From an uncultured Enterobacterales bacterium (GTDB lineage: Bacteria; Myxococcota_A; UBA796; CAJQPC01): DNA of 64,000 nucleotides. Both the position numbers and the translations under genes were made by a program. Shown here piece by piece: positions 6,688 through 42,000 of this stretch; the stretch's first letter is position 1; each line of letters begins with the position of its first letter. A model generated the notes under the pieces. The model was not told the DNA's origin, did not search any database, and saw only the letters and a program-made list of their open reading frames with translations. The stretch is taken from positions 3,408 to 67,407 of the forward strand of contig CAZRYF010000013.1 of the NCBI GenBank assembly GCA_964604165.1. The letters are read 5' to 3'.

Positions 6688-6749
6688 TTTGTCGCGGTCC
6701 TTGGGAGGGTCGGCTACTAGGATAGCGCGCTCCACAAGGGGAGGAGAAC

Positions 6750-7232
6750 GTGCGCTGGCACATGCTGGACCGAATTGACGAAATGGTGCAGGGCGAGCAA
6801 GCCCGCGGCACAAAGAGCTGGCCGGAAGACCTGGAGTTTTTCCAGGATCACTTCCCGGGGTTTCCCGTGGTGCCCGGTGTCCTTTTGTTGGAAGCAATGG
6901 CCCAGCTCGCAGGAAAGCTCATCGGCTACACCGTGCGCCTGGAGCGGGGAGACTGGCCCTTTCCAGTGTTCAGCATGGCGGAGAAGGTGAAGTTTCGTCG
7001 GTTTGTTCGCCCTGGTGACGAGGTGGAGCTGGTGGCCCGCTTTTTGGCCCTTCGGGAGGAGAGCGCGGTCATGCGCGTGGAGGCACGAGTGGACGGCCGG
7101 CGACATGCCCAGGCGGAGCAGACCTTTGTCTTCAATGCGGTGCCTTTTGAGAACGCCGCCGAGAGCGAGAACGTGGAGCGTCTGGAGCGCGCGGAGATGA
7201 AGCGCCTGTGGGCGGAGTGCCCGGACGAATGA
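6750..7232 (+). CDS. FabZ/FabA-like beta-hydroxyacyl-ACP dehydratase (hotdog fold)
   Basis: FFQDHFPGFPVVPGVLLLEAMAQLAG matches the FabZ active-site block HFPxxPxxPGVLxxEAxAQ. It is the first gene of a plus-strand run with stop/start overlaps. Confidence 0.85.
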   Translation: MRWHMLDRIDEMVQGEQARGTKSWPEDLEFFQDHFPGFPVVPGVLLLEAMAQLAGKLIGYTVRLERGDWPFPVFSMAEKVKFRRFVRPGDEVELVARFLALREESAVMRVEARVDGRRHAQAEQTFVFNAVPFENAAESENVERLERAEMKRLWAECPDE

Positions 7233-24802: not shown

Positions 24803-24808
24803 AGACAG

Positions 24809-25693: not shown

Positions 25694-26712
25694 GCGGATT
25701 GAGCGTCGCTCTTCGCCACTGGTCCTCTCCGTTGGTCCATCCGCTAAAGACCGGGTGGGGGACGGTGTCCCATCGAGAAGGGTGGTGGGTCACCCTCCGG
25801 GACCCAGAGGGACGCGCGGGGGTTGGGGAGCTGGCGCCCCTGCCCGGTTTCTCAAGAGAGCGCCCCGAGGAGGCTCGACAGGCGGTGGAATGTGTCGATT
25901 CAGCCCGGCTGGATCTCGCCTCTCCCGTGGAGTCTCTGATTGGCCTGGACTTGCCGGCTGCTGCTTCCCACGGAATCGAGCAGGCGCTGTGGGATCTCCT
26001 GGGGCAACAGGAGGGACACACGGTCTGCGCACTTTTGGGGGGTGAAGAGGCGTCGAGTATCTCCGTTTCTCGTCTTGTTCGGGATGCCCAAGAGGCAGCG
26101 TCGGCGGTGAAGGCCGGATGCGGCTGCCTGAAGCTCAAGGTGGGTGCAGCTCCCTTGGGGGAGGACGTGGAGAGAGCTGCAGGGGTGCGCCAGGCGGTGG
26201 GGGGCGGGGTTGCCATTCGCCTGGATGCAAATGGCGCCTGGTCGCTGGAACAGGCAAGAGAGGCGCTGGATGGGTTTGCCTTTCTGGACATTGAGCTGGT
26301 GGAGCAGCCCCTCGCTACGTTGGCATCCCCTGGGGATTGGGCCTTGTTGCGGGGGGCGAGGATTCCATTGGCGGTGGACGAGTCCTTGCCGGTGACCCCG
26401 GACCTGGATGGGCTCTTGGATGTGGTGGATGTGGTGGTACTCAAGCCCATGTTGCTGGGGGGGCTCCTGCCGACCGTGCAGCTGGGACGGCGTGCCATGG
26501 CGGCCGGGTGCAAGGTGGTGGTGACCTCTTTGTTGGAGTCCGGCGTGGGACGTCACGGGGCTCTTCATGTGGCGGCAGCCTTGAAGGGGGAGAAGCTGCT
26601 GGCCTGCGGGTTGGACACTGGCGGCTTGCTCCAGCGGGATCCTTGTAGGGGTCCCGTGGTGAGAGAGGGGAAGATGACCGTATCGGGGCCGGGTTTGGGG
26701 TTGCCGAGATGA
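25690..26712 (+). CDS. menC: o-succinylbenzoate synthase (enolase superfamily)
   Basis: GTG 25690 overlaps the menA TGA. The sequence shows CLKLKVG, IRLDANGAWS, IELVEQP and AVDESL. Confidence 0.75.
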   Translation: MSGLSVALRHWSSPLVHPLKTGWGTVSHREGWWVTLRDPEGRAGVGELAPLPGFSRERPEEARQAVECVDSARLDLASPVESLIGLDLPAAASHGIEQALWDLLGQQEGHTVCALLGGEEASSISVSRLVRDAQEAASAVKAGCGCLKLKVGAAPLGEDVERAAGVRQAVGGGVAIRLDANGAWSLEQAREALDGFAFLDIELVEQPLATLASPGDWALLRGARIPLAVDESLPVTPDLDGLLDVVDVVVLKPMLLGGLLPTVQLGRRAMAAGCKVVVTSLLESGVGRHGALHVAAALKGEKLLACGLDTGGLLQRDPCRGPVVREGKMTVSGPGLGLPR

Positions 26713-28049
26713 GCGCTCTTCTTCCTCCCCTGGTGGCAGCGGCTCGCGCCCGTCCGGAGGCCTTGGCTCTTCGCTTTGGTGGAGAGACGCTGACCTACGA
26801 GGAGCTTCGAGCGGCTGCCGCTGAGGGAGCGGGGACCCTGGCGTCCATGGGGCTAGGGCCGGGCAGTCGCGTGGCCCTTGTGGGGGCGCCCTCCCTGGAG
26901 TGGGTCAAGACCTTCCATGCGGTGGGGTGGTTGGGCGCCATTGCGCAGCCTGTGTCCCACAAGCTTCCAAAGCCGGCGTTGGACGACTTGCTGAGCCGGT
27001 TTGCACCGGATCGGGTGTTGGTGGGGGAGGCGTTGGCCTTGGCGCCCAGCGATCCGCAGCCGGTGCGGCTGTGGCCGGCCTCAGAGACGCGCATCGAGCT
27101 GGCAAGCTCTGGCACGGGCGGACAGCCAAAGCGGGTCTCTCTGGACGGTCGGCAGATCTTTTTCAGCGCTGTGGCCTCCGCCTTGCGCTTGGGACACTCT
27201 CCTGGCGATGTCTGGCTCGACTGCCTTCCGCTGCACCATGTCGGCGGCCTCTCCATTCTCTTGCGGTGTGCCTGGTATGGCACATGCGTGGCCTTGCACG
27301 ATGGGTTTGATGTGACACAGGTTCGGGATGGAATTCACTCGGGTGGTGTGTCCCAGGTTTCTCTCGTGCCGACCCAGCTGGAGCGGCTCCTGGAACATGG
27401 GCTGCAGACCCACGAGAACCTCCGCTTTCTCCTGGTGGGAGGGGCGCCCCCGTCCAGGTCTCTCCTGGAGAACTGCGCAACCCGCGATCTGCCGGTGGCG
27501 ATATCCTGGGGCATGACCGAGACCGCCTCCCAAGTGGCCACTCGACTTCCTGGGGATCTCGCCCCCTTGTCGGCAGGCTGTCCACCCTTGTCCTTTGTGG
27601 AGTTGGAGGTGGAGGGGGGGGCGCTGGTGGTGAGCGGCCCACTGGCACCGGGAGGCAGGATTCGCACCTCGGATGCGGGCTGGGTTCGCGGGGGTCGGGT
27701 GGGGGTGACGGGGCGTGTGGATGACATCATCCTCTCCGGGGGGGAGAACGTGGATCCCCTCTCCATCGAACAGGCCCTGAGCGCCCACCCGGGGGTGCGG
27801 GAGGTGTTGGTGGTGGGACGAGACGATGCCCAGTGGGGCCAGAGGCCTGTGGCCTGGCTGGTGGCGGCTGGGGATCTGCAGCCGGGTTCCTCCGAGCTGA
27901 CGGAATGGTGTCGGGAGAGGCTGCCGGCCTTTGCGGTTCCGGATGCTTTTCGCTGGTGTGATGCTCTGCCCAGAACCGATCTGGGCAAGCCGTCACGTGC
28001 CCGGGTCCGAGAACTCGAGGCCAGCCTTTCGAAGAGCGGGTGCGAATGA
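26709..28049 (+). CDS. menE: o-succinylbenzoate-CoA ligase
   Basis: ATGA overlap with menC. Adenylate-forming motifs are present: SSGTGGQPKRV, WGMTETAS and GRVDDIILSGGENV. Confidence 0.8.
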   Translation: MSALLPPLVAAARARPEALALRFGGETLTYEELRAAAAEGAGTLASMGLGPGSRVALVGAPSLEWVKTFHAVGWLGAIAQPVSHKLPKPALDDLLSRFAPDRVLVGEALALAPSDPQPVRLWPASETRIELASSGTGGQPKRVSLDGRQIFFSAVASALRLGHSPGDVWLDCLPLHHVGGLSILLRCAWYGTCVALHDGFDVTQVRDGIHSGGVSQVSLVPTQLERLLEHGLQTHENLRFLLVGGAPPSRSLLENCATRDLPVAISWGMTETASQVATRLPGDLAPLSAGCPPLSFVELEVEGGALVVSGPLAPGGRIRTSDAGWVRGGRVGVTGRVDDIILSGGENVDPLSIEQALSAHPGVREVLVVGRDDAQWGQRPVAWLVAAGDLQPGSSELTEWCRERLPAFAVPDAFRWCDALPRTDLGKPSRARVRELEASLSKSGCE

Positions 28050-28421
28050 CGCCGGAACCGAGCGTGCACGAAAGGTGGTTGTGTCCAGGAACGCATGGGT
28101 CAGGCGCACAAGGACCCGGTGGACGCCGTCTTCCCCGTCCACTGAGTAGGAGAAGGTTACCGAGCTGTTTCCGAGTCGCGCTACCGTCACGGTGATCAAC
28201 ACGGTCTCCCCCAGCCTCAAAGGGGCTGCGTAGTCGGCTTCCGACCGCACCACTGGCATGCCCCACCCTTCCTCGTTGATGACAAATCCAAGGGGAATTC
28301 CTCCGGTCGCCAGCAGAACCTCAAAGGCTTCGTGGCACATTTCGTAGACCCGGGAGAAAAATGCAATCCCGGCGCTGTCCACGTGGGCGAAACGGATGGT
28401 GTAGGGGTGTTGAAAGCTCAT
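27993..28421 (-). CDS. 4HBT/YbgC-type hotdog acyl-CoA (or acyl-ACP) thioesterase
   Basis: MSFQHPYTIRFAHVDSAGIAFFSRVYEMCHEAFE is the typical 4HBT N-terminus. ATGA overlap with the upstream PPTase (28418-28421). The 3' end overlaps menE convergently by 57 nt. Confidence 0.8.
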   Translation of the reverse strand: MSFQHPYTIRFAHVDSAGIAFFSRVYEMCHEAFEVLLATGGIPLGFVINEEGWGMPVVRSEADYAAPLRLGETVLITVTVARLGNSSVTFSYSVDGEDGVHRVLVRLTHAFLDTTTFRARSVPASFAPALRKAGLEFSDPGT

Positions 28422-29095
28422 GGGGTTGGGGTAACCCAGCGGACGTTGGGCACCACCTTGCCCGCGTGCGTTTCTTGAGCAGGCATGGCGAGGGTTGTCA
28501 CCTGGTCCTCAGGGCTGGCCACCCGCTCTACGTCCCAGGACCTGCCCGAGGGAGAGACGAGCCGCCACGGCCCTGGGCCGGCCAGGACGGCGGAGGCATC
28601 CAGGGCAGCCAGTTCGGCGGCGATCCCACACCCTTCCGCCTTGAGTACGGCCTCCTTTGCGGTCCAAAGAGCCAGGAACGTGCGAGGGTCTGCCCACGAG
28701 CTATCCTGCTCATTTGGGTGAAAAAAACGTCTCGCCAGGGCCTCCCCATCGGGAATCTCTCGGACACGCTCCACGTCAATTCCCAAGGCGCTCACCGCTG
28801 CACTTGCCATCCACCAGGCGTTGCCGCAGTGGGAGGTGCTGAAGGCCCTTGTGGAGTCGGGCATCTGTGGTTGACCGGTCAGGGAGTGGGTCCAGTGGAC
28901 TTTGTCTGGCGGGCAACCCAGGAGAGGAGCCAACAAGCCCCGGGTCAGGCGCCTTCGACGCTTCAGGCGTTCTGCCAGAAGAGGGGTGACCATGGCGGCT
29001 GCCTCGGGCAAGTCTGTGGGTCGTGACCAGGCTGTGGGAAGAGGGGTGTCCTCATCCAGATTCGCTGACCAAATCCGGACCGCATCTCCCGTCAC
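28418..29095 (-). CDS. Sfp-type 4'-phosphopantetheinyl transferase
   Basis: Frame of ORF 28418-29422. The start is GTG 29095, 5 nt after GGAGGAG, overlapping the upstream stop (GTGA). The sequence shows FSTSHCG, LGIDVERV and WTAKEAVLKAEG. Confidence 0.8.
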   Translation of the reverse strand: MTGDAVRIWSANLDEDTPLPTAWSRPTDLPEAAAMVTPLLAERLKRRRRLTRGLLAPLLGCPPDKVHWTHSLTGQPQMPDSTRAFSTSHCGNAWWMASAAVSALGIDVERVREIPDGEALARRFFHPNEQDSSWADPRTFLALWTAKEAVLKAEGCGIAAELAALDASAVLAGPGPWRLVSPSGRSWDVERVASPEDQVTTLAMPAQETHAGKVVPNVRWVTPTP

Positions 29096-29877
29096 GGGTT
29101 CTCCTCCTGCAGCAGCTCGCCGCTCTCCACCCACCGCTGAAGAGTACGTGCGGCCGAGAGCATCTCCTGTCCATCTACGATGAAGTGATCGCAGATCATT
29201 CCTACCCCCAGGAGGCGGCGGATCTCTACTTTGCCGTGTCGAGCGACTGGTTTTCGCTCCACGAACCCAGGAAAAAATGCGACAGCCGTGTTGGCGTAGG
29301 CGTGAAAGCTGATCGGTCCTTTTCCGACACCTGCCACTGGAGAAATGCCGTAGGTTCCGTAGAGGTTTGAGTAAAAGGAGGGGCTGCTTCGGGTGCGCCA
29401 GCTGACGAGGCGGAGGATCCACGGGGGCAAGGAACGAAGTCGATCCACCCGTTGAAAGTCAGGCAGGTCCGACAGGGGCGCCGTGCGGGCATGCCGTAGG
29501 GTTCTCTGAATCTGCTCCATTGTGAGGTTGTTTACGTGTCTAAGCAGAAGGGGGTACAACGCCTTCTCTCCCTGGTCGTTCCTTCGTTGGACAATGACCG
29601 TGCAATGGATGGAGTTGAACTGCACAAGTCGTTTTCGGAACCCACTGTGGAAGAGGTGGCGATTCAGGCCTGGGTACTCCTCAAGAAGTCTTGCTGTGGC
29701 CAGAATCAGGTAGGCAGTGAGACCTACCCGGCGACCGCCTCGGCGTGCAGATCGCAAAGCCTCCAAAGTGTCGGTGACGTCGTACTCCCAGCCGGTGGAA
29801 ACCGGTGCATGGAAGCGCTGGGATCGACGCACAAGGGAGTAGATGATCTCCCGTTCGCCAAACCTGGTCTCCTTCAT
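29092..29877 (-). CDS. stand-alone 2-oxoacid dehydrogenase E2-type acyltransferase catalytic domain protein
   Basis: 261 aa with no lipoyl or subunit-binding domain. The sequence shows GLTAYLILATARLLEEYPGLNRHL and the catalytic block MICDHFIVDGQEM (DHxxxDG). Confidence 0.7.
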   Translation of the reverse strand: MKETRFGEREIIYSLVRRSQRFHAPVSTGWEYDVTDTLEALRSARRGGRRVGLTAYLILATARLLEEYPGLNRHLFHSGFRKRLVQFNSIHCTVIVQRRNDQGEKALYPLLLRHVNNLTMEQIQRTLRHARTAPLSDLPDFQRVDRLRSLPPWILRLVSWRTRSSPSFYSNLYGTYGISPVAGVGKGPISFHAYANTAVAFFPGFVERKPVARHGKVEIRRLLGVGMICDHFIVDGQEMLSAARTLQRWVESGELLQEENP

Positions 29878-31019
29878 GCGCCCCCCTCGCCGTACGTGGC
29901 CAGCAGCTCTCGAAACATGCGTCGTTCCAGTACCTCGGTGCTTCCCTCGTAGATCGTGGTCTGACGCGCATCCCGGAACCGCTTCTGAATGGGGTAGTCC
30001 CCGCGAATTCCGCGCCAGCCCATGAGTTGCACCACCGTGTGGGTGGCGTCCTCGGCGAGTTTGGAGGAGAGCAGCTTGGCGATAATGGCTTGGCGGGAAA
30101 ACGGTTGGCCAGCATCCAGCCGGCGGGTCGCATCATGAAGCACCGCGCGGGCGGCCTCCAGGCGGGCAAAAAGCGCCCCCAGTTGCATTTGCACATGGGA
30201 GAGCTCGAACAGGCGCCCCCCGTGCACCTCCCTTTCCTGGATCCAGGGCAGGGCCACGTTCAACGCCCCTTGCACCAGCCCGAGAATGATCGCCCCGCCC
30301 CCCACACGCATGGTGTCCAGAGAGGGAAGCAGCAGGTCAATGCCGGACCCAAGGGCGCCGATCCGGTTCTCGTCTCCCACCTCCACTTGAAAGGAGATGG
30401 GCGGCGTGGGAAGGGCTCGGAACCCCAGCTTGTCCGGGTTTTCTCCCACCTTGACGCCGTCGCCTCGAGGCACGGCAAAGAACGTGGGTCCCAGGGAGCG
30501 CCCTCCATCAAGCGCCTGGGCCAGCACCAGGTACAGGGTGGCGTGGGTGCCGTTTCCCACCATGCACTTCTCTCCCTCCAGTACCCATCCGCTTTCTGTG
30601 CGCCGTGCGGTGGTTTGAATCTCCAACAGGTTGGAACCACTGGAGTCTGGCTCTGTCATGCAGAGAGAAGCCTGTTTCCCGTCCTGGATGGTTGTCGCAA
30701 CAAGTCGCTCCATCTGTTCCGTTGTCCCCCCCCGGAGAAGCGGCACCAGGGAGCCGTGGTTGAAACCGAGACTAAAGGCAATGGGGGCACAGGTCGCGGC
30801 CAGGATCTCCCCTGCCTCCACCAGCTCCATAAAGGGCTGCCCCTGACCTCCAAGGTGCTCTGGCAGGCTTCGGTTCACCAGTCCCTGTCGGAAAGCGGCT
30901 GCGTGGACAGACTCGGCAAACCGGTTCTCCCGATCGTAACGGTCCGTCTCGGGGGCCATGACTTCTCGGGCAAAGCGCTGGCATCTTGTCTTGAAGTCTT
31001 TGGGTTCCACTCGGGTCAT
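29874..31019 (-). CDS. acyl-CoA dehydrogenase family flavoprotein
   Basis: 381 aa. ATGA overlaps at both ends (31016-31019 and 29874-29877). ACAD layout with LCMTEPDSGSN and C-terminal IYEGSTEVLERR (catalytic Glu block). Confidence 0.85.
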   Translation of the reverse strand: MTRVEPKDFKTRCQRFAREVMAPETDRYDRENRFAESVHAAAFRQGLVNRSLPEHLGGQGQPFMELVEAGEILAATCAPIAFSLGFNHGSLVPLLRGGTTEQMERLVATTIQDGKQASLCMTEPDSSGSNLLEIQTTARRTESGWVLEGEKCMVGNGTHATLYLVLAQALDGGRSLGPTFFAVPRGDGVKVGENPDKLGFRALPTPPISFQVEVGDENRIGALGSGIDLLLPSLDTMRVGGGAIILGLVQGALNVALPWIQEREVHGGRLFELSHVQMQLGALFARLEAARAVLHDATRRLDAGQPFSRQAIIAKLLSSKLAEDATHTVVQLMGWRGIRGDYPIQKRFRDARQTTIYEGSTEVLERRMFRELLATYGEGGA

Positions 31020-34000
31020 CCTTTAACGTCTGCTCGGCTTTCCTGGGCGAGCGCAGCCACCAGCGCAGCCAGCGTGGGGTGCTCAAACAAGAGCGTGGGG
31101 GGCAAATCCATTTCGAGCGCCTCTCCGAGGGCACGGGCGACCCGAACGGCCTGCAGAGAATCCATTCCGTACCGGGCAAATCGAATGTGTGATGCAACCG
31201 ACCCCGCCGGGCGGGAGAGAGCCTTGGCTACCATGGCGCGTACGGTCTGCTCCATAGGGTCGCTCATGGATGGGTCCTGGCAAGCCTCCGCAACCAGAGG
31301 AGCGGTGTCCTGCACCTCTTCCCGCTTGGCGGAGAAGTCTTGGACTTGGATGCGCAAGTGGCCACTTGCATCGAAGAGAGAGACATTCGCGCGCAGGGAT
31401 GTGGAGTCCGCGCGAAGGGGGGTGGCCAGGCGCGCGTGGGCCATGCAGGGGCCCTCCAAGGGGCCGAACACGTCCAGGCTGCCCATGGAGAACCCTAAGA
31501 AGGGGCTTGCGGTGGCGTCCCCGACCGCCAGGGTGAAGGCCGCCAGAGATTGGAAGGCGCCATCCAGCAGGCCGGGATCCAAGAGGTGGTGTCGGGCCTT
31601 CTCTCTCGGCTCCAGGTGTGCCAGGAGCTCCCACTTGCCCAGGTACACCCGGGTCAGGGTTTGCAAGCGGGGCCCATGGACCATCCCTGTTCGCTCCAGG
31701 CGTTGAAGGATTTCCTCCACGGGAATCTGTGAGGTGCAGTTCCGTCGAATCCCATCCAGATCCTGGACGGGCGCTACCCGCACCTGGGTGACCCGTTTCG
31801 CACTCAGGTGGGCCACCCACTCGCCCGTCCTTTCCCGGCTCTCCAGAGTCCACTGACCGTCCTCTCCTTCTACGGCCCGAAGTCGCTTCAAGTCCCCCTC
31901 CTGAAGCTGGAAGGACCGCATGATCCACACGTCTTGAAAACGGGCGGTGTCCGGGCGCCCCGCAAGCTTGGCCAGGCGGTCCAGCATCCAGGACCCGGGG
32001 GCGATGCTGCGACCCTGGGCCCGGTGATCCCGAATCAGGGGGTCGGTCTCGAGGGAGACCAGTTGGCCGCCAGTGGACCGCTGCGGTGCGGCGGCCTGGG
32101 GTGCTGTGAGGTTGAAGTGCAGTCCGGCGGGTCGCAGATCCCGGCGTTGGTGGGGATAGGGAGAACGAACGGTCGGCAGCAAGGGGTCCACTGGCTGAAC
32201 GCGGTGCCAGTTCGGATTTGCTCCCTGCTCGTAGAGGTCCGCCAGCGCCTGCAGAAGGGGGCTGGATTCACCCTCGCGCAGCAAGGGAATCGCTTGTTCT
32301 CCCGCGCTCTCAATGGCGCTGGAGAGCACCGCTCGTGCGCCCAGTTCCACGAACACGGTGGCGCCCTCGCGGCCCAGGCGGGAGATGGTGCGTCCGAAGT
32401 CGACGGTGCCGGTGACCTGGTCCTGCCAGTACGCGGTCGGGATTTCCTCCATGGGACGGGCATGCAGGGACGACCAGAAAGCCAGGTGGGGTCGGAGGGG
32501 GGCTCGATCCAAAAGGGCAGCGGACAGGGCTGCCTTCACCGGGGCCATCCAGCGTGAATGGGCGGCGCAGCCCACCGGAAGGGGACGACACACAAGTCCG
32601 TTCTCAGAGAGGAGCCTGGTGGCGTATTTGATGGGCTGGGCGGGGCCGGAAAAGACGCATTGATCCGGGGCGTTTCGGGCTGCGAGATCCAGGTCGATTC
32701 CTGCTCCTTCAAGCAGAGCCCGCGCTCTCTCTTCCGCACCCAGTACTGCCACCATTCCGCCAGGCGAACAGGCCGCCATGGCCTCTCCTCGCAGTACCGA
32801 GAGCGCCATCCCCTGGGCTGGATCCAGGGCGCCGCTTACACAGGCGGCCACCAGCTCACCGGCGCTGTGACCCACGACGGCGTCGGGCTGGATTCCCAAT
32901 CGTTCCAGCGTTTTTGAAAGAGCGAGTCCTGTCGCAAAAACAAGTGGCTGCGCATGGGCGATGGTGTGGTTTTTCTGTTGCAACAATTCTATCAGGTCAA
33001 AAGGAAGCCCTTTGCTCAAGGAACCGAACTCTTCGCGAAAGACCGGGGAGGACTCCAGGAGGCGGAGTACGCGCTGGGGGTGTTCTGAACCGGGGCCCGG
33101 AAAGGCGAAGACCACCCTCCTCGCCTGGGATCGTGCGTTTCGTTGTCCAGAGGAGAGAGCGACCAAGGCCTCTTCCAAGCCTGCCCGCGACTCCACCACG
33201 GTGGCACTTCTCCACCCGTGGCGGGGTGCCCCGCGTGCCCAGGAAGCAACGAGGTGGTGCAGGGGAAGAGAGTCGCCTCTCTTCAACTCAGCGAGCCGCG
33301 CCGTGGCCACCTGTCGCATGGCAGCAGGGGAGGGGGCTGAGAGGGCGAGGACCTGTCCTGAGAGGGACGCCTCTGGGGCCATGGAGGTCTGAGGTGCGTC
33401 GGCCAGGACCAGGTGGCAGTTCGTACCGCCGACCCCAAAGGCGCTGATTCCTACCCGCCGGGGTTCGGTCGTGCGAGGCCAGGCCAAGGGAGCGAGCACA
33501 GGCTGGAGAAGGGGGCTGGGAAGACGATCGGAGCGGGCGGTTGCGCCGGCGATGGGGGGAATCTGCTCGTGTTGGAAGGCAAGCAGCACCTTCCAGAGAG
33601 ATGCGGCGCCCGCTGCTCGCTGCAGGTGGCCCACGTTGGACTTGGCGCTGCCAAGGGGCAAAGGGCGGTCTCGGTTGTCCAGCCACCGGGTCAGCACCGA
33701 GGCCTCCACCGCATCCCCGATGGGGGTGCCGGTGCCGTGGCATTCGATCCAGTCGGCTTCACCCGGGTGACGGCCTGCCTGTGCCCAGGCCGCTGACAGA
33801 ACCGCCTCTTGTCCCGCGGGGTTGGGGGAGAGGCGGCTGGCGGCGCCTCCATCATTGTTGACCGCGCTTCCCGCCACAACGGCCAACACCCGGTCGCCTT
33901 CCGCCAGGGCTCGCTCCAGGGGCTTGAGCATCACCAACCCTCCACCTTCTCCCGGCACGAAGCCATCGGCCCCAGCTGAAAACGGAGTGCAGGCACCGGT

Positions 34001-37000
34001 CTTGGAGAGGACCCCCGCCCTCCCGAGAAGAATGTGGCTGATAGGAGTAAACAGAAGCTCCACCCCCCCGGCGATGGCGGCCTCACACTCGCCCTGCACC
34101 AAGGCCCTGCAGGCCAGGTGAATGGCCACAAGAGAGGAGGCGCATGCAGCCTGAATGACCACAGCGGGGCCTTCCATGCCCAAGGTGCTGGCGAGGCGTG
34201 CGGCTGCCATGTTGTCGGTGACGCTGCTCAAGGTCTCAGAGAGATCCAGGGAGCCGGAGTTCAAGCCTTCCAGAAGCTGGCGGCGATCGAGAAAGGTATC
34301 GCCCTGGCACACGTAGACGCCCAACTTCTTGGGGGAGCAACCGGTGTGATCCAGGAGATCAGTGGCCAGCTCCAGCAGAAGACGCTGGTGTGGATCAATG
34401 CTGCGGGCCTCTCTCTCTGAGGCTCCAAACGGCTCGGGATCAAAATGGAAGGGGCGGGGGAGCCAGGCGCCAAAGGTGGTCTCGTCGCCTGGGTGCAGGC
34501 CGGGGTCCCAGCGGTCAGAGGGGAGCGGGCCAAAGCTGGCGTGGCCTCCTGAGAGAAGCTGCCAGAAGGCGTCGCCGTCTTCTGCGCCCGGCAAGCGACC
34601 TGCCACACCCACAATGGCAATGGCCCCTCCAGGAGACGGCATCTGTACCGTCGAGGTCGTGGGCGCAGTGGGGGCAGCAACCGACTCCGCCTCCTCCCGA
34701 ATGCGCTCGACCATGTCCAAGGGGGTCTGCACCCCCTCCACCACCCGGTGAGAGAGGTTTCGTTGGAGCGCGGCCTCCAGCAGGGCGTGGATTCGCGCGG
34801 CCTGGATAGACCGACCCCCCAGGGATCGAAAGGTGCTCTGCGGGTGGATCACGCCGGCGGGCAGGGCCAGCACCTCTTGCCAAGCACTGAGAACTTGCTG
34901 GAGAAGGTCGTCGGGTTGAGTGGGCTCCGGATCTGTTCGCCGCGAGGCGACTCCTTCCAAGCGCTGCCGCAGCTTGTGGCGCTGGGTCTTTCCGCTGGAG
35001 GTTCGGGGTATTTCTCTTCTGTGGACTTGTTCCAGGGAGGCAATGCGAAGCCCGAATGTCTGGCCGATCCGTTCTCGCAATGCTTGTTCCCCGGCGGCGT
35101 CCAGGCGTGCAGGCTGGACGACGAAAAGCGCCAGGCAATCCCGGCCATCCCGGTGAAAACCCGTCGCCACAACGCTTCTGGGTCCAAGTCCGGGCAGCGA
35201 TGCTGCCACCCGTTCCACGTCTTCCATCCACAGGTTCTCCCCTTCCAGGCAGATCCGGTCCGCACGCCGTCCCACGACAAACAGGTGTCCCTCGGCCATG
35301 CATCCGTCATCCCCGGTGTTGATCCAGTCTGGGGATCCCAGGCAACGCCCTGGGGATCTCACTTGGATTTGCCCTCGAATGGTCTCGGAAACCTCGGCTC
35401 CATCGGCATCCACCACGCGGACTTCCACCCCCTCCAGGGGGGCTCCCAAGTCCACCAGCTCCATTCCCTCCTCGAATTCCCGCCATGCAGGGATCTCTCC
35501 GGGCCGGGACAACGTGACACACAGAGTCGCTTCGGCCAGGCCGTACCCCGGGCACAGGGCCTCCGGTCGGAATCCCGCGGGCTCGAACCGATCAAGAAAC
35601 GCCCTTAGGGTGGCGCTGGAGATGGGCTCCGCCCCATTGAGCAAGCAGCGCACACCTGAGAGGTCCAGGCCCGTGACGTCTGGGATCATTTTTGTGACAT
35701 GTGCCAGGCCAAAGTCAGGGCTTGCAGTGCAGCTTATTTTATGTTTCGAGATCCGGGAGAGCCACTCTCTGGGTCGTCGCACAAAATGCCCGGGCTCCAT
35801 CAGCACCTGGTTTGCACCCGTGGCCAGTGGGAGAAGGTGGTAGCCGATGAGCCCCATGTCGTGATGAAGAGGCAACCAGCTTAAGAACTGCGCTTCGGGC
35901 CCTTCTGTTCGGGCAGCGACAATGGAGTCGATGTTGTGGAGAATGCCCCGGTGGGTAAGGCCAAGTCCCTTGGGGCGGCCGGTTGTGCCCGAGCTGAACT
36001 GCACCAGGGCTGCGGCTTTCGGGTTGCCCTCCCAAGGTGGGCCGGGCTCTCCTTTTTGTAGAGATTGCAAGGAGTCCCCGCGGATCACCATGGGGTTGTC
36101 CAGGGAAGATCGAAGGATGGAAGCGTCCTTGACGATGGAGGGTAGCGCACCCTCCAGGAGACAGGCCCAGAAAACCCCCACCGTGTCGGGAAGCCCCATC
36201 CCCTCCAGCAGCACGCTCCTCCTGGGGGCCAGGCCGTTCTGCTGGAGGTGGGCCCGAATGGACTGGGCTCGTTCAAACAACGCCGGGTAGCTCTCCAACC
36301 GGTCCGGAGCCCCGACGGTGAGGTACCGAATTCCCTTGTTCGGGTGGTCTCTCATCGTCTGACGGAAGCGAGAAACCAAGGTCTCCCCCCCAGCGATTGA
36401 CGTGCTTTCTGCAAACCCGGGTGCCCAGATGCGGGTGTGGCGGAACGAGGTGTCCGTCGCAAGCTCCTGTCCGTGGGGGAGATGCCAAAGGCCCGGTGCT
36501 TCCAGGAGCTGGCTTTGGCCGGGGAAGACCTGATCCAGGAGGTTCCGTGTGGTGTGCAGGCCCCATGCGTGGGGCAGGGCCCGCTCCACGTGCAGTCGAA
36601 AGGCCTGGGCCAGGAGGGATCGCTCGTCCGAGTCGAGGTCCAGTGCCTTGAGGTGGGCCAGGTCCGTGGGAATGTGCTGTGCCTCTTCCCGGGCGTGGAG
36701 CCGGTGGGCCGCTGCCCAGGTGGGCTGGATAGGGACGGACTCCTCCTGAAGCGCCCGGTGAAAAAAGAGCGTCCACTCCTCAAAGAACAGGGTCGCAGTC
36801 CAGAACAGGTGGTGCTGCTGCCCTGCGGACTCGTAGCCCTCCAGGGAGAAAGGAGCCTTTAGAACGGCGCGGCTCTCGTCTGCGCAGTCGTCAAAGGACT
36901 CGGACCATCCGGGGAACCGGCATCGCAGACGCCTCGCCAGCTCCTGAAACATCGCGATGTGCCGGGTTTCCTCCAGGCAGAGGTCCGTCACGCAGGCCTG

Positions 37001-37282
37001 GTTCAGCCCCTCTTCTCTTGTGAACGCCAGAATGTGCTCCTCAAAGGAGCAGAAGGCCTCGCAAATGGAGAGAGCCACCGAACCTTGCACGCAGGTTCGG
37101 GCCTCCGGGGTGAGCCTCTCCAAGTGGATTCCCAGTCGTTGGGCGAGCTTTGGTCCCAGGAAATCTCCGGGATCCTCCCACTGGTCCCAAGGAACATCCG
37201 ACTCCACATCAAAGCGGTAGTGGAGGGACCGTCCGTGCAGGGGAGCACAGAGTGCTTTCAGGTTCTTGTACGGGTCGGCCAC
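31016..37282 (-). CDS. 2088-aa hybrid megasynthase: di-iron oxygenase-like domain, FAAL, ACP, KS, AT, DH, ACP
   Basis: Single uninterrupted ORF. Domain motifs are listed in the sub-features below. I recognised no KR, ER, TE, R or C domain. Confidence 0.9.
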   Translation of the reverse strand: MADPYKNLKALCAPLHGRSLHYRFDVESDVPWDQWEDPGDFLGPKLAQRLGIHLERLTPEARTCVQGSVALSICEAFCSFEEHILAFTREEGLNQACVTDLCLEETRHIAMFQELARRLRCRFPGWSESFDDCADESRAVLKAPFSLEGYESAGQQHHLFWTATLFFEEWTLFFHRALQEESVPIQPTWAAAHRLHAREEAQHIPTDLAHLKALDLDSDERSLLAQAFRLHVERALPHAWGLHTTRNLLDQVFPGQSQLLEAPGLWHLPHGQELATDTSFRHTRIWAPGFAESTSIAGGETLVSRFRQTMRDHPNKGIRYLTVGAPDRLESYPALFERAQSIRAHLQQNGLAPRRSVLLEGMGLPDTVGVFWACLLEGALPSIVKDASILRSSLDNPMVIRGDSLQSLQKGEPGPPWEGNPKAAALVQFSSGTTGRPKGLGLTHRGILHNIDSIVAARTEGPEAQFLSWLPLHHDMGLIGYHLLPLATGANQVLMEPGHFVRRPREWLSRISKHKISCTASPDFGLAHVTKMIPDVTGLDLSGVRCLLNGAEPISSATLRAFLDRFEPAGFRPEALCPGYGLAEATLCVTLSRPGEIPAWREFEEGMELVDLGAPLEGVEVRVVDADGAEVSETIRGQIQVRSPGRCLGSPDWINTGDDGCMAEGHLFVVGRRADRICLEGENLWMEDVERVAASLPGLGPRSVVATGFHRDGRDCLALFVVQPARLDAAGEQALRERIGQTFGLRIASLEQVHRREIPRTSSGKTQRHKLRQRLEGVASRRTDPEPTQPDDLLQQVLSAWQEVLALPAGVIHPQSTFRSLGGRSIQAARIHALLEAALQRNLSHRVVEGVQTPLDMVERIREEAESVAAPTAPTTSTVQMPSPGGAIAIVGVAGRLPGAEDGDAFWQLLSGGHASFGPLPSDRWDPGLHPGDETTFGAWLPRPFHFDPEPFGASEREARSIDPHQRLLLELATDLLDHTGCSPKKLGVYVCQGDTFLDRRQLLEGLNSGSLDLSETLSSVTDNMAAARLASTLGMEGPAVVIQAACASSLVAIHLACRALVQGECEAAIAGGVELLFTPISHILLGRAGVLSKTGACTPFSAGADGFVPGEGGGLVMLKPLERALAEGDRVLAVVAGSAVNNDGGAASRLSPNPAGQEAVLSAAWAQAGRHPGEADWIECHGTGTPIGDAVEASVLTRWLDNRDRPLPLGSAKSNVGHLQRAAGAASLWKVLLAFQHEQIPPIAGATARSDRLPSPLLQPVLAPLAWPRTTEPRRVGISAFGVGGTNCHLVLADAPQTSMAPEASLSGQVLALSAPSPAAMRQVATARLAELKRGDSLPLHHLVASWARGAPRHGWRSATVVESRAGLEEALVALSSGQRNARSQARRVVFAFPGPGSEHPQRVLRLLESSPVFREEFGSLSKGLPFDLIELLQQKNHTIAHAQPLVFATGLALSKTLERLGIQPDAVVGHSAGELVAACVSGALDPAQGMALSVLRGEAMAACSPGGMVAVLGAEERARALLEGAGIDLDLAARNAPDQCVFSGPAQPIKYATRLLSENGLVCRPLPVGCAAHSRWMAPVKAALSAALLDRAPLRPHLAFWSSLHARPMEEIPTAYWQDQVTGTVDFGRTISRLGREGATVFVELGARAVLSSAIESAGEQAIPLLREGESSPLLQALADLYEQGANPNWHRVQPVDPLLPTVRSPYPHQRRDLRPAGLHFNLTAPQAAAPQRSTGGQLVSLETDPLIRDHRAQGRSIAPGSWMLDRLAKLAGRPDTARFQDVWIMRSFQLQEGDLKRLRAVEGEDGQWTLESRERTGEWVAHLSAKRVTQVRVAPVQDLDGIRRNCTSQIPVEEILQRLERTGMVHGPRLQTLTRVYLGKWELLAHLEPREKARHHLLDPGLLDGAFQSLAAFTLAVGDATASPFLGFSMGSLDVFGPLEGPCMAHARLATPLRADSTSLRANVSLFDASGHLRIQVQDFSAKREEVQDTAPLVAEACQDPSMSDPMEQTVRAMVAKALSRPAGSVASHIRFARYGMDSLQAVRVARALGEALEMDLPPTLLFEHPTLAALVAALAQESRADVKG
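31019..31270 (-). other. megasynthase domain 7 (aa ~2005-2088): carrier protein 2
   Basis: FARYGMDSLQAVRVARAL, with Ser2042 as the attachment site. Confidence 0.85.
31328..32080 (-). other. megasynthase domain 6 (aa ~1735-1985): PKS-type dehydratase
   Basis: HxxxGxxxxP motif = H1753RAQGRSIAP, and DxxxQ motif = D1907GAFQ. Confidence 0.8.
32213..33121 (-). other. megasynthase domain 5 (aa ~1388-1690): acyltransferase
   Basis: VVFAFPGPGSE, GHSAGELVAA (Ser1473) and PVGCAAHSRWM (His1575, with a non-canonical CAAH specificity motif). Confidence 0.85.
33383..34630 (-). other. megasynthase domain 4 (aa ~885-1300): ketosynthase
   Basis: IAIVGVAGRLPGA, QAACASSLVAIHLA (Cys1047), ECHGTGTPIGD (His1182), SNVGHLQRAAG (His1219) and GVGGTNCHLVL. 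Confidence 0.9.
34688..34915 (-). other. megasynthase domain 3 (aa ~790-865): carrier protein 1
   Basis: FRSLGGRSIQAARIHALLE, with Ser825 as the attachment site. Confidence 0.8.
34958..36385 (-). other. megasynthase domain 2 (aa ~300-775): fatty acyl-AMP ligase (FAAL)
   Basis: VQFSSGTTGRPKGLGLTHRGIL, WLPLHHDMGLIG, LNGAEPI, GYGLAEATL and TSSGKTQR. Confidence 0.85.
36413..37225 (-). other. megasynthase domain 1 (aa ~20-290): ferritin-like non-haem di-iron carboxylate domain, AurF-like ligand pattern
   Basis: Candidate ligands are E75 (SICEAF), E105xxH108 (LEETRHI), E168/E169 (FFEEW) and H196xxxE200xxH203 (HAREEAQH, codons at 36674-36697). The spacing 30/63/31 compares with about 35/60/31 recalled for AurF E101, E136xxH139, E196, H223xxxE227xxH230. 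Confidence 0.6.
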
Positions 37283-37290: not shown

Positions 37291-38955
37291 CTACCTCGCC
37301 TGGATGGTGTCTGGGGAGATCTCCAGGCCTGTGCTTTCCCAGAGCATCTTGGCAAGGGGAAGAAGCTTGAACTGGGACTCCCAGGCCCGCTGGTCCACAT
37401 CGGAAGTCTCCACTGTCTGGGGATCCAGGGCCCTGGCCACGGTCTCGTAAGGAAGCTGCACCGCGCGAAATCCGTTCAGTCGATCGCTCGCACGCTTGGC
37501 CTTGTACTCAGCGTTGAGTGTGAGCAGCGACCGATCAAAGTCCAGTGCAAGGGCCTCCAGGTCCATGGTGGGCGGCGGCTTCTTTGTCGTGGCAACGATC
37601 AGGACGTAGCCCGGATTTGGAAACAGTCCCTCTACCGCGGGGGGCCGAGAGGGCAGTACGGTGAATTGCAATTCCCGAAGGTCGTGGCGCCTACAGCAGG
37701 CGTCCCAGGCCAATTCAAGTTGTTCTCCCGTGAGCTTTTCCCCCGTAAAGGAAAAGGCGAGGCCCCGGCGTCGGACAAACCGCAGGTCGGGAAGCCCATC
37801 CACAAACCGATGGCAGCGAAAGACGTCCTGGGTGTCGTAGCGAACCAGACCGACGGAGTCGCTGATCACCATGGTGTAGAGCCCGTTTGGGGAGAGCTCC
37901 CAGGGGAGAAGAAGCTTGTCCGGCGCGTCCCCCTCAAAGAACTCATACAGAGTGCCCGGGTAGGCGGGTAGAAAGGCGAGGCCGTGCTGAAAGTGGTGGA
38001 CCGTCTCGATGGCTTCCGTGGACATGGAGTACATGGGGACCAGCTGAAAGCGGTTCTTGGGCAGGTGCCGGTGGAGTCGGTCCAGAAACGGCGCAACGTA
38101 TCCTCCATCCCAGCAGGTGTAGATTCGTAGAGAAGGGGCGATTTCGGAGAGGGCAAGTGGGTCGGTAGAGTGGGCGATTCGTTGAAGACGCTCTCTCCAT
38201 CCGGTGGCAAGAACCCGTCTTGCCGCTCGGGCAGCGTTCGGGTCCAGGTTTCCCGTTGCGTGGGCGCGAATGAGGGAGGTGGACTCTTCCCAGTGCTGGT
38301 CCACCTCCTCCAGAAACACCGCCAGAGTGGAGGGGTTGGTGGCATAGAGCATGCCCGGGTTCGTGAGCGCCAGCAGCCACAGCCGAGCCGCTGTGGCCCC
38401 ATGGGCCTCGACAGTGGGGGCAAGGGCGGAGGACTGAAGGAGCAGGGCCGGGGTGAGCAGGGTCATGAGCCGCGGCGGTGGGTCCTTTCCAGCCGCCAAG
38501 ATGAAGCGCGTCAGGGACGTGTCGTCCTTCAGGCTCGCGAGAATCAGCAGTCCGGCCCTCTTCAGGCCGTAGGCGCGGCTCATTCGGCAGATTGCGCTGG
38601 CATTTGCTCTTTTGATTCGGCGCACCCGGTCGGGGCTCCAGGCGATTCGCTTGGGGTCGCGTGTGGAGCCAGAGGTCTCCGCGAGCACTCCTTCCCCTTG
38701 TGCTTCCATGCGGGCACGTGTGGCTGCGTCGTATCCCTTGACCGGTACGTCAGCCCCGATCCCCAAGCGCACTGCCAGGGCTTCCTGGTCGATCCGATAC
38801 CGCGACAGGCTGGCTTGAAACTGCCATTCCAGCAGGCTCGCCAGGACTCGTCCCCCCAGGCTGCACCACCACCGAACGGACTCGTTCCAGGCAAGTGAAA
38901 CAGCATCCGCGATGCGGTCGGTGAGCGGATGTGCCATGGGGGGGGAGGGTAGCAC
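37291..38955 (-). CDS. GH3-family adenylating enzyme-like protein (paralogue 2)
   Basis: The stop lies 9 nt upstream of the megasynthase start. The start is 38955 or ATG 38937 (MAHPLTD). Motifs: ETSGSTRDPKRIAW, MYSMSTEAIE, VISDSVGLVRYDTQDVFRCHRFVDGLPDLRFVRRRGLAFSFTGEKLTGEQ (collinear with ORF 431-2056). Confidence 0.7.
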   Translation of the reverse strand: MLPSPPMAHPLTDRIADAVSLAWNESVRWWCSLGGRVLASLLEWQFQASLSRYRIDQEALAVRLGIGADVPVKGYDAATRARMEAQGEGVLAETSGSTRDPKRIAWSPDRVRRIKRANASAICRMSRAYGLKRAGLLILASLKDDTSLTRFILAAGKDPPPRLMTLLTPALLLQSSALAPTVEAHGATAARLWLLALTNPGMLYATNPSTLAVFLEEVDQHWEESTSLIRAHATGNLDPNAARAARRVLATGWRERLQRIAHSTDPLALSEIAPSLRIYTCWDGGYVAPFLDRLHRHLPKNRFQLVPMYSMSTEAIETVHHFQHGLAFLPAYPGTLYEFFEGDAPDKLLLPWELSPNGLYTMVISDSVGLVRYDTQDVFRCHRFVDGLPDLRFVRRRGLAFSFTGEKLTGEQLELAWDACCRRHDLRELQFTVLPSRPPAVEGLFPNPGYVLIVATTKKPPPTMDLEALALDFDRSLLTLNAEYKAKRASDRLNGFRAVQLPYETVARALDPQTVETSDVDQRAWESQFKLLPLAKMLWESTGLEISPDTIQAR

Positions 38956-39039: not shown

Positions 39040-42000
39040 ATGTTGGCGCCGTACCACCTGGCCATGTGGAAGTGCTTTTTGCGCTCCGTGGGAGCGAGCG
39101 CACTGGTTTGCCTTGTCTCTGGATGCAGCGGGGACAACAAGGTGGGGCTGATCAACAACCCGCCGGAGGTGACCTTCACGTCTCCCTCGGAGATGGAGAT
39201 TTTCCTGTTGACGGAGCCGATTCTCCTGATGGCCCAGGTGGAGGACCCGGAGACTCCCAATGACAGGTTGGATCTCTCTTGGGGGTTCAGCCCCGAGGGA
39301 TCCGTCACCGGGGACAAGGAGATCGGAGAGGAGGAGGTCTCCATGTTCCTCCCGGATGGGCTGGAGGCGGGCACCTACACGGTGGGGCTGCTCGCCGTGG
39401 ACCCAACGGGCGCCCGGGACAGCGACAGCGTGTCCTTTACCGTCAAGGAAAACGAAGCCCCTGTGGTGACTATCCTGGACCCTGTGGAGGGGGGGGAGTT
39501 TGCGGAGGGAGAGGCCATAGAGGTGGTTCTGAACATCAGCGATCCGGACCAGCGAAACATCCATGAGCTGGAGTTGGGCTGGGGCGGCGTGGCAACGGGC
39601 AACCCGGATGCCCCGACGAATCCAAACTCGGACGGGAGCGTGAGCTTTTATCTGCAGGGGCTCGGGGTCGGACAGTACGTGCTCTCCGTGGAGGTCACGG
39701 ACAGCCTGGGGGCTGTGGACTCAGAGTCCAGCGTGTTCGACGTGGTCGACGGCGACCGGGATCGGGATGGCTTCAACGGGGCGGATCTGGGGGGGGACGA
39801 TTGTGATGACCGGGACGAGAACATTCATCCGGATGCAGACGAGGTCTGCGACGGGGTGGACAACAACTGCAACGGGGTGGTGGATGAGGACACCGCCGTG
39901 GACGCGCCTACCTGGTACGCGGATCTGGACATCGACACCTACGGCGACCCTCTCTCCATTGCCCGCGCGTGTGTTCAGCCCGCCGGGTACGTGGTGGACA
40001 ATACGGACTGCAACGACTCGGACGCGAACGCAAACCCGGGGGCCAACGAATACTGCGACGGCCACGACGACGACTGCGACGGCGTGGTGGATGAGGATGA
40101 CGCCCTGGATGTCGTCCCCTGGTTCCAGGATGCGGACTTTGACAGCTATGGCGATTTGAACGTCTATGTGCTGGCGTGCACGGCTCCGGCTGGGCATGTG
40201 AGCGACTCCACGGACTGTGATGACACCGACGCTTTGACGTCTCCCGGCGCCAACGAATACTGCGACGGGGTGGACAACAACTGCGATGGTTCCACGGATG
40301 AGGCCACCGCACTGGATGCCACGATCTGGTACATGGACGCGGATGCCGATGGGTACGGGGGCACCTCGTCCACGGTGGTCTCCTGCAGCGCCCCCAGCGG
40401 GTACATGGCCGACGCAAATGACTGCGATGACAGCAACGCCGCGATCTACCCCGCAGCCACAGAGATCTGTGATTCCGTGGACAACGACTGTGATGGTGCG
40501 GTGGATGAACCGGACGCCGTGGATGCCACCCAGTTCTATGCGGACACCGATGGCGACTCCTACGGCGACCTCTACAACCCGGCGAACGCCTGCTCCCTCC
40601 CGTCTGGGTACGCCGCCAACAGCCTTGACTGCGATGATTCGGACGCCACCGTGCATCCCGGGGGAGTTGAGGTCCCGTACGACGGCCTGGACAATGACTG
40701 TGTGGACGGGGACGCCTGCGATCTGGACGGCGATGGCCACGACGCCTCGATCTGCGGTGGCGGAGACTGCGATGACGCCGATCCGTCCCTGAATCCGTCT
40801 GTTGCAGAGATCTGCGACGGAGAGGACAACGACTGCGATGGCCTGGTGCAGCCAGAAGAGGAAGACCACGACTCCGACGGGTTCGTGGAGTGCACCATCG
40901 TGGCCACCGGATGGGTGGGGGTGGTCACCTCTGGCTTCCCGTCCATGGGGGGAGAGGATTGTGACGACACGGATGGGACGGTCTTTCCCGGCACATCAGA
41001 GCGTTGCGACGGCATCGACAACGACTGCGATGGGGTGACGGACGAGTCCGACGCCGTGGACGTGTCCACCTGGTATGACGATGAAGACGGGGACACTTAC
41101 GGCAACATCAACACCGCCGTGGACGCTTGTAGCGCCCCGTCCGGCATGGTGCTGGACGGAACCGACTGCGACGACGAGGAAGGGACGGTCTTTCCGGGCG
41201 CAACGGAGGTTCCCTATGACGGGATCGACAATGATTGCCTGAACGGGGATGAATGTGATGTGGATGGGGACGGCTTTGATGCGAGCGATGGCCTCTGTGG
41301 CGGAACCGACTGCGACGATACCGATGCGACGATCTTCGGGGGGGGCGTGGAGGTCTGTGACGGCATCGACAATGACTGCGACGGCCTTGCGGATGAGTCT
41401 GATGCCACCGATGCGGTGGATTGGTACGACGACGACGATGGGGACGGCTTCGGCAACCCGGACACTGCCATGCGGGAGTGCAACGCCCCGAGCGGCATGA
41501 TCGCCGATGGCACTGACTGCGACGATGAAGACCCCCTCGTTCATCCGAGCGCGGCGGAGATCTGCAATGGCGTTGACGACAACTGTGATGGTTCGGTCAG
41601 CTCTGCGGAAGGGGATGACGACGCCGATGGCTATGTGGAGTGCACCTTGGTGTCTACTGGCTGGGCTGGCTCGTTTACGTTCGGTTTCTCTTCCATGGGT
41701 GGAGGGGACTGCGACGACACAAATACCGCGGTGCACCCGGGCGCCGCTGAGGTGTGCGACGGCCTGGACAACGACTGCAACGGAGCAGTGGACGGCAGCG
41801 GCGCCCAGGGCACGGCCAGCTGGTACGCGGACTCGGACGGGGATGGCTACGGCAACCCGAACAACGTGACAAACACCTGCAGCCAACCCACGGGTTTTGT
41901 CACCGTGCTCAACGGGGACGACTGCAACGATGTCAACGCGGCGGTGAACCCGGCCGCCAGCGAGGTCTGCGACGGGTATGACAACGACTGCGATGGGGAT

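Follow-up and report, generated by a model that had tools for sequence, protein, structure and literature searches.

An AurF-like di-iron domain fused to a fatty acyl-AMP ligase-primed polyketide synthase belongs to a recurrent family that probably oxidizes carrier-bound acyl chains

The window analyzed here is a stretch of 64,000 nucleotides from an uncultured bacterium (GenBank assembly GCA_964604165.1, contig CAZRYF010000013.1, positions 3,408 to 67,407 of the forward strand). At 31016..37282 on its minus strand lies a single uninterrupted open reading frame (ORF) of 6267 bp, which encodes a type I polyketide synthase (PKS) of 2088 residues and starts with a GTG codon 8 nt past the TAG of an upstream GH3-like gene. 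According to Pfam, the protein is composed, in this order, of a di-iron domain, a fatty acyl-AMP ligase (FAAL), a loading acyl carrier protein (ACP1), a ketosynthase (KS), an acyltransferase (AT), a dehydratase (DH), and a terminal acyl carrier protein (ACP2). The first of these, an AurF-like domain, is the subject of this work; an initial annotation made from the sequence alone had proposed that it is an oxygenase fused in cis to the synthase. The family of this domain is labeled DIFE below, and L- and P-numbers designate related loci and proteins. The domains of the window protein are as follows:

36413..37282, minus strand: AurF-like ferritin-type di-iron domain (DIFE), aa 1-290 (Pfam PF11583, AlphaFold2, Foldseek, 158 family representatives)
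34913..36385, minus strand: FAAL domain, aa ~300-790, A3 motif SSGTTGRPK at aa 430 (Pfam AMP-binding, 1.8e-40)
34673..34900, minus strand: loading ACP (ACP1), aa ~795-870, Ser825 in GGRS (Pfam PP-binding, two stretches)
33548..34621, minus strand: ketosynthase, aa 888-1245, Cys1047 in ACASS, HGTGT at 1182 (Pfam ketoacyl-synt, 9.6e-66; Ketoacyl-synt_C, 1.3e-31)
32291..33112, minus strand: acyltransferase, aa 1391-1664, GHSAG at 1471 (Pfam Acyl_transf_1, 7.4e-36)
31313..32059, minus strand: dehydratase, aa 1742-1990, HRAQGRSIAP at 1753 (Pfam PS-DH, 2.7e-18)
31049..31249, minus strand: terminal ACP (ACP2), aa 2012-2078, Ser2042 in GMDS (Pfam PP-binding, 2e-25)

The elements of a FAAL-primed type I PKS are all present, namely, the FAAL, an ACP, a KS with its Cys/His/His, an AT with GHSxG, and a terminal ACP, and the catalytic motifs of the FAAL, KS, AT, and DH are intact. 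The adenylating part scores as a fatty acyl-AMP ligase against the NCBIfam models PRK09192 (223 bits) and PRK07768 (241 bits). Its N-terminus (36385-35990, minus strand, aa ~300-430) is about 45 residues shorter than that of relatives in which the FAAL comes first: the A3 motif lies at aa 430, compared with residue 179 in P0029, and the Pfam match covers profile positions 153-378 only. The FAAL may have been shortened in adaptation to the domain fused upstream of it. The presumed phosphopantetheine serine of ACP1, Ser825, sits in an unusual GGRS instead of the usual GxDS, and ACP2 has a canonical GMDS. No ketoreductase (KR) domain was found anywhere in the window PKS, where there is no Pfam match, no Rossmann motif, and no room for one. 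The resulting KS-AT-DH-ACP extension module, with its intact DH motif, is common to about 8-10 relatives; other relatives have DH-KR.

The N-terminal domain is assigned to the AurF family by several approaches. When excised, residues 1-290 score 38.6 bits (E=9e-10) against Pfam AurF (PF11583), above the curated gathering cut-off of 29.6, and the score within the full-length protein is 34.0 bits. No other Pfam family matches these residues at E<=1, including the aldehyde-deformylating oxygenase (PF11266; ADO) and acyl-ACP desaturase (PF03405) models with which the initial annotation had suggested comparing it. Among 30 family relatives, 21 match PF11583 at E<=0.01 and none matches another Pfam family; NCBIfam holds no model matching the domain. 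An AlphaFold2 model built from a 30-sequence family alignment is all-helical and confident (pLDDT 94.9, pTM 0.92), and its long helices at 59-90, 96-122, 153-179, and 187-213 bear the conserved Glu and His residues. In a Foldseek search of the PDB, the best match was CmlI (5hyh, E=4.5e-4, TM 0.54), followed by AurF (2jcd, 3chh, 3chu) and then by ribonucleotide reductase R2 subunits (RNR-R2), R2-like ligand-binding oxidases (R2lox), and acyl-ACP desaturases; the top 50 hits are all di-metal carboxylate proteins. Because the Pfam score, the family conservation, the structure model, and the fold search agree, the prediction of a real, well-folded AurF-like ferritin-type di-iron domain, as first proposed, is supported.

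Sequence comparisons with the PDB reached less far. A search with the domain returned chance ACP matches only, and the family profile reached R2lox sequences only (4HR0, E ~0.005), over about 30 residues on the ExxH helix, where the EEx[KR]H of the family lines up with DEAKH, the metal-binding motif of the 4hr0 family. Beyond this short match, R2lox differs from the window domain by its 2-His site and gives a weaker fold match than AurF and CmlI. In R2lox proteins, the metal site accommodates a long-chain fatty acid.

Conservation was assessed in an alignment of 119 family relatives, using the numbering of the window protein. Nearly invariant are R18, Y22, D25, D29, W32, G39, E81, E104, E105, K/R107, H108, W161, and E168, as well as W189, H193, H196, E199, E200, Q202, H203, T206, and D207. 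The family thus has an N-terminal element, RxxxYxFDxxxDxxW, and the signature EEx[KR]H + HxxHxxEExQHxxTD; the positions E104, K/R107, H193, E199, Q202, T206, and D207 add to those pointed out initially. The elements proposed to bind metal are encoded as follows:

37040..37042, minus strand: E81 codon, proposed first carboxylate ligand, helix 59-90 (E in 117/119 relatives)
36959..36973, minus strand: E104-E105-T-R107-H108, the EEx[KR]H motif, helix 96-122 (E104 116/119, E105 116/119, H108 119/119)
36776..36781, minus strand: E168-E169, helix 153-179, E168 being the proposed third carboxylate (E168 117/119, E169 100/119)
36662..36706, minus strand: H193-xx-H196-xx-E199-E200-x-Q202-H203-xx-T206-D207, helix 187-213 (family signature, codons checked; H193 112/119, H196 118/119, E199 119/119, E200 117/119, H203 118/119)

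All the residues named in the initial annotation (E75, E105/H108, E168/E169, and H196/E200/H203) are present, and HAREEAQH is indeed encoded at 36674-36697. The AurF-style pattern of seven ligands, three His and four carboxylates (E, ExxH, E, HxxxExxH), is found in 116-119 of the 119 relatives. One of the proposed ligands has to be replaced: E75, which had been equated with AurF E101, was rejected as the first metal ligand, its position being variable (Glu in 40/119, Arg in 24/119, Asp in 14/119). Since E81 is near-invariant and E75 is not, the first carboxylate ligand is probably E81, and the ligand set would comprise E81, E105, H108, E168, H196, E200, and H203. All seven of these putative ligands and both second-sphere Glu are intact in the window protein.

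Compared with AurF and CmlI (PF11583; 3CHH, 2JCD, 5HYH), which belong to the same Pfam family by gathering score and are its best structural matches, the domain shows a similar spacing, with 95 residues between the ExxH glutamates versus 91 in AurF and 32 residues from E168 to E200 versus 31 from E196 to E227 of AurF (numbering in PMC12101540). In contrast, the second-sphere Asp residues of AurF (D135 and D226, in DExxH and HxxDExxH; PMC12101540) are replaced by E104 and E199 within EEx[KR]H and HxxEExQH; position 104 is Glu in 116 relatives, Asp in 3, and Gln in none. The window domain also has the additional conserved H193 and the TD motif, and it is fused to FAAL and ACP, whereas AurF and CmlI are free-standing enzymes; no arylamine substrate is in sight here.

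Several observations indicate that the fusion is genuine. The reading frame runs from residues 1-290 into the FAAL with no stop and no frame change. The window matches the ENA metagenome scaffold SUTE22-1 (ERZ23498905) and a Logan contig of SRR9166051 at 100% identity, and the same 6267-bp gene with a 2088-residue product is called in both assemblies. Four relatives, L006, P0021, P0110, and MSQ04281.1 (from a Myxococcales metagenome-assembled genome, MAG), are collinear with the window protein from about aa 15 to near the C-terminus at 33-35% identity. Two other metagenomes (L012 and L013) carry a split version of the operon, ordered GH3 > stand-alone DIFE > FAAL-PKS > acyl-CoA/ACP dehydrogenase (ACAD), in which DIFE is a separate gene of 308 residues ending in TAA and, 2 nt on, a GTG opens a FAAL-ACP-KS-AT-DH-KR PKS. 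Residues 1-291 of the window protein align to this stand-alone protein and residues 301-1989 to the PKS from its residue 20, placing the gene boundary of the split form at window aa 291/301. As the fusion point coincides with a gene boundary elsewhere, we regard it as a true gene fusion and not an artifact, in keeping with what had been claimed for the cis arrangement. The PKS of L012 (8930-16927, ENA contig) is broken into many short gene calls, and that of the Logan contig L013 is one ORF of 2116 aa; the difference probably reflects frameshift errors in the L012 assembly rather than biology.

The family was delineated by an exhaustive HMMER (phmmer) scan of 1.84 billion representative proteins, clustered at 50% identity, which returned 158 relatives at E<=1e-3 and 136 at E<=1e-10; in none of them does the identity to the window domain exceed about 40%. 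An indexed homologue search with the single domain or with a 30-sequence profile found P0001 only; the word index evidently misses the family. The 151 relatives retrieved comprise about 77 short or stand-alone proteins, about 34 with the domain fused at the N-terminus, and about 36 that carry it internally. Domain labels were given from local seeds, with a Pfam check on 24 proteins, and yielded the following architectures:

DIFE at the N-terminus: DIFE-FAAL-ACP-KS-AT-DH-(KR)-ACP-(ER); DIFE-ACP-R; DIFE-ACP-C
DIFE after FAAL: FAAL-DIFE-ACP-C; FAAL-DIFE-ACP-R; FAAL-DIFE-ACP-TE
DIFE after ACP: FAAL-ACP-DIFE-KS...; FAAL-ACP-DIFE-R

In all of the approximately 70 fused representatives, the neighbor of DIFE is a FAAL or an ACP, although the domain order varies, and one stand-alone member lies directly behind a gene for an 82-residue ACP. 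The coupling to an adenylation or ligase domain and a carrier protein that marks carrier-dependent AurF-like enzymes is thus found in DIFE, either by fusion or through adjacent genes. Further partners recur. An ACAD domain is fused into P0020 and P0147, and a sulfotransferase (ST; PF13469) is fused beside DIFE or ACP in P0099, P0087, P0055, P0066, and P0027 and is also found in a module downstream of the L003 PKS (L003 17333-20806). The sulfotransferase fusions suggest sulfated or sulfate-activated lipid products.

The hosts are MAGs of Myxococcota-type lineages, Pseudomonadota, SAR324, and Planctomycetota. A scan of GTDB representative genomes, a set without the window's own genome, with a narrow alignment found nine loci, all in MAGs (Nannocystaceae, Methylobacter, SAR324, Planctomycetota, and others). 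The sole member from a cultured organism is WP_437534494.1 of Sorangium sp. So ce726 (FAAL-DIFE-ACP-R), almost all others being metagenomic. In their source databases, the relatives are called "hypothetical protein" or bear generic names or names taken from their other domains, and no assignment of the fusion or of its function was found in full-text searches covering few subscription journals. The initial annotation knew of no characterized example of the fusion; this stands insofar as no assigned function was found, but the architecture is recurrent and not singular. The family is marked by a motif signature of its own and by its placement in cis within assembly lines.

The PKS is the second gene of an operon that runs from the GH3-like ligase through the PKS, the ACAD, a CAT-fold acyltransferase ("AcT"), and a 4'-phosphopantetheinyl transferase (PPTase) to a 4HBT thioesterase, with gene ends that overlap or nearly do so. 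The other five genes are as follows:

37291..38955, minus strand: GH3-like adenylating/amide-forming enzyme, first operon gene (Pfam GH3_M, GH3)
29874..31019, minus strand: acyl-CoA/ACP dehydrogenase (ACAD), start overlapping the PKS stop (four Pfam ACAD domains)
29092..29877, minus strand: 2-oxoacid_dh-like (CAT-fold) acyltransferase AcT (Pfam PF00198, 6.4e-10)
28418..29095, minus strand: 4'-phosphopantetheinyl transferase, 225-aa gene call (Pfam ACPS)
27993..28421, minus strand: 4HBT-family thioesterase, last operon gene (Pfam 4HBT and 4HBT_2 on the L010 gene, 100% identical to the window)

Several of these genes recur beside DIFE. The GH3 neighbor is also present in L006, L008, and L012/L013, and an ACAD is likewise a neighbor in L006 and L012/L013; L006 combines GH3, ACAD, and acyltransferase with a fused PKS. 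Homologues of AcT, about 260-300 aa long, accompany differing DIFE architectures (L002 7483-8295, L007 7386-8282, L006 8099-8905, L014 5886-6662): the gene lies directly upstream of FAAL-DIFE-ACP-C in L002 and L007 and beside a stand-alone DIFE in L014. The operon head is a conserved bacterial GH3-like gene, of the type of plant auxin- and jasmonate-amido synthetases, for which NCBIfam has no model. No aminotransferase is encoded in the window operon.

In L002, from a Methylobacter MAG, the stretch just upstream of AcT > FAAL-DIFE-ACP-C (4328-7109) encodes a class-V aminotransferase together with an aromatic amino-acid ammonia-lyase/aminomutase (549 bits), and the "FAAL" of this locus may load an aryl acid instead of a fatty acid. 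In the window, a complete-looking and unrelated menaquinone set (19935-28049, plus strand: polyprenyl synthase, UbiE/MenG, MenF, MenD, MenA (UbiA), MenC, and MenE) abuts the thioesterase end of the operon on the opposite strand and probably marks the border of the cluster. At the other end, divergent from the operon and separated from it by an 84-bp gap, 39040-44784 (plus strand) encodes a 1914-aa protein with 19 Cu-binding_MopE repeats and, in addition, FG-GAP repeats. The Cu-binding_MopE repeat type is typical of Myxococcota and so gives a hint of the lineage from which the window comes.

On balance, we think it probable that residues 1-290 form a catalytically competent AurF-like di-iron oxidase or oxygenase in the loading module of a FAAL-primed type I PKS, with hydroxylation as the favored reaction. 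Since DIFE always lies beside a FAAL or an ACP despite the varying domain order, its substrate is most likely the fatty acyl starter held on the loading carrier protein; this support for action on a FAAL/ACP-bound substrate, as initially suggested, is circumstantial but consistent. The substrate would then be acyl-S-ACP1, the metal presumably iron, and the outcome presumably hydroxylation. In the mechanism we propose, the FAAL would adenylate a fatty acid and load it onto ACP1 (Ser825), after which the di-iron domain, taking electrons from an external donor, would use O2 to functionalize the tethered acyl chain, C-H hydroxylation being the preferred outcome. The KS would add one malonyl unit to the modified chain on ACP2, and processing and release of the product would fall to the enzymes encoded in the same operon, namely, the ACAD, the CAT-fold acyltransferase, the GH3-like ligase, and the 4HBT thioesterase. 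Hydroxylation is favored because a sulfotransferase is fused in several relatives, among them small FAAL-DIFE-ST-ACP-R proteins that have neither a KS nor a KR to provide a hydroxyl, which leaves the di-iron domain as the one candidate for placing it on the tethered chain. One may also speculate that a beta-hydroxyl on the starter would lie beta to the ketone made by the KS, where the DH of the KR-less module could eliminate it without ketoreduction.

A number of points weigh against this interpretation. The likeness to the solved AurF and CmlI structures is remote (13-16% identity and TM ~0.5 in Foldseek), and PDB sequence and profile searches with the domain did not reach AurF. The operon contains no gene for a ferredoxin or reductase that would serve the di-iron site. 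At several conserved positions, the window protein has a residue other than the consensus one: C97 (S in the family), R107 (K), E114 (R), and G67 (W). Finally, the sulfotransferase argument is ambiguous, as this domain could instead sulfate a primary alcohol released by the R domain.

Other chemistries were considered for the same domain. The one that survives best, which we nevertheless hold to be rather unlikely, is a desaturase or another di-iron enzyme oxidizing C-H or C-C bonds, which would introduce a double or triple bond or an epoxide or bring about oxidative decarboxylation or chain cleavage. Every one of these reactions is known from ferritin-like di-iron enzymes acting on acyl-ACP or acyl-CoA, BioE being a di-iron oxygenase that oxidizes and cleaves these substrates (PMC12704756), and the domain-order evidence fits this chemistry equally well. 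Acyl-ACP desaturases, ADO, and BioE share the ferritin-like superfold with DIFE and act on acyl-ACP, acyl-CoA, or aldehydes, and plant acyl-ACP desaturases appear among the fold hits, lower in the Foldseek list. Their site, however, is of the 2-His/4-carboxylate type without the extra His, and the Pfam desaturase and ADO models have no match in the domain at E<=1. Moreover, the recurring partner ACAD would already supply alpha,beta-desaturation, and the fused sulfotransferases suggest that the chain bears an oxygen nucleophile.

The closest functional precedent, missing from the initial annotation, is provided by the CylC/NocO halogenases, di-iron enzymes that act on FAAL-loaded acyl-ACP (PMC12101540). 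A CylC/NocO-like DIFE would place chlorine or bromine on an unactivated carbon of the FAAL-loaded acyl-ACP, with the halide serving as a handle for later chemistry, a possibility we judge improbable. The pathway logic is the nearest of any known system: CylA (FAAL), CylB (ACP), and CylC feed a PKS (PMC12101540), and in CylC, NocO, and BrtJ an AurF-like enzyme works on a FAAL-loaded acyl-ACP before PKS extension (PMC12101540, PMC8406957). CylC also has three His ligands (PMC12101540), and a few homologues have been reported in deltaproteobacteria (PMC8406957). The motifs nonetheless differ, in a comparison that draws on published descriptions, motifs, and residue numbers only: in place of the halogenase QExxH and HxxDExxH, DIFE has EEx[KR]H, with no Gln in any of the 119 relatives, and HxxEExxH, with E199 invariant. 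The gap between the ExxH glutamates is 95 residues, compared with about 154 in NocO (from the residue numbers in PMC12101540). The domain of about 290 aa is far from the free-standing halogenases of about 450 aa (NocO ~51 kDa), and no CylC-sized protein with the longer spacing was present among the phmmer matches. CylC/NocO/BrtJ enzymes are mostly cyanobacterial, whereas DIFE comes from MAGs of Myxococcota-type lineages, Pseudomonadota, SAR324, and Planctomycetota. A further lead is the lipothrenin cluster, which combines a FAAL, an RNR-R2-like protein, an ACP, and the AurF-like LitN and in which deletion of LitE had minor effects (PMC10616846); considered as a possible characterized relative, it is mentioned as a lead only.

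Strict N-oxygenation of the AurF/CmlI/PvfB type, in which an amine on a tethered or released intermediate would become a hydroxylamine, nitroso, or nitro group, appears very improbable. It would accord with membership in Pfam AurF, with the arylamine N-oxygenases as best structural matches, and with the 3-His/4-carboxylate pattern, which is described as largely specific to N-oxygenases (PMC12101540). The AurF homologues PvfB and HamC, which act on NRPS-tethered valine, further show that the family can handle carrier-bound substrates (PMC11659414). These enzymes, however, work in trans on a valine loaded by the NRPS, while the window domain stands in cis with a partner that scores as a fatty acyl-AMP ligase and not as an amino-acid A domain. 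Furthermore, the window operon contains no aminotransferase, the second-sphere D135 and D226 of AurF are Glu here, and phmmer from the domain reached no protein named N-oxygenase. Scarcely credible, finally, is the view that no functional fusion exists, the join being an assembly or frameshift artifact or the domain a decayed, noncatalytic docking domain: the departures of the window protein from consensus at a few conserved positions and the assembly-level nature of the support for the fusion speak for it, but two assemblies agree on the 6267-bp gene without a difference, the same N-terminal fusion recurs in about 34 independent representative clusters, the seven putative ligands and both second-sphere Glu are intact, and the AlphaFold2 model is very confident.

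Taken together, we favor hydroxylation of the carrier-bound acyl chain, followed by desaturation and other oxidations, halogenation, and N-oxygenation, in this order. On a more tentative note, and as an idea that is more likely wrong than right, the family could represent a third functional branch of AurF-like enzymes, next to those of the N-oxygenases and of the CylC halogenases. Its members would be acyl-ACP hydroxylases embedded in assembly lines, whose hydroxyl group would be exploited downstream, by DH elimination in the window and by sulfation in the sulfotransferase-containing relatives, with the operon leading to oxidized amide- or ester-linked lipids of uncultured Myxococcota, Pseudomonadota, SAR324, and Planctomycetota.

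Chemistry that selectively oxidizes unactivated carbons of a fatty acyl chain bound to a carrier is both rare and valuable, and the known AurF-like enzymes for tethered substrates (CylC/NocO and PvfB) are free-standing and difficult to handle. A natural fusion of di-iron domain, FAAL, and ACP unites the catalyst, the loading enzyme, and the carrier in one polypeptide. With such a unit, the way in which a di-iron site engages a chain on an ACP could be studied in a self-contained system, and engineered pathways to lipopeptides and polyketides could be equipped with a portable tailoring module. The finding is also broader than the initial annotation had it, extending from one protein to a family and a conserved operon: comprising at least 158 clusters (50% identity), almost all metagenomic, it points to an enzyme family of considerable size that is still unexplored and to a conserved lipid pathway of six genes.

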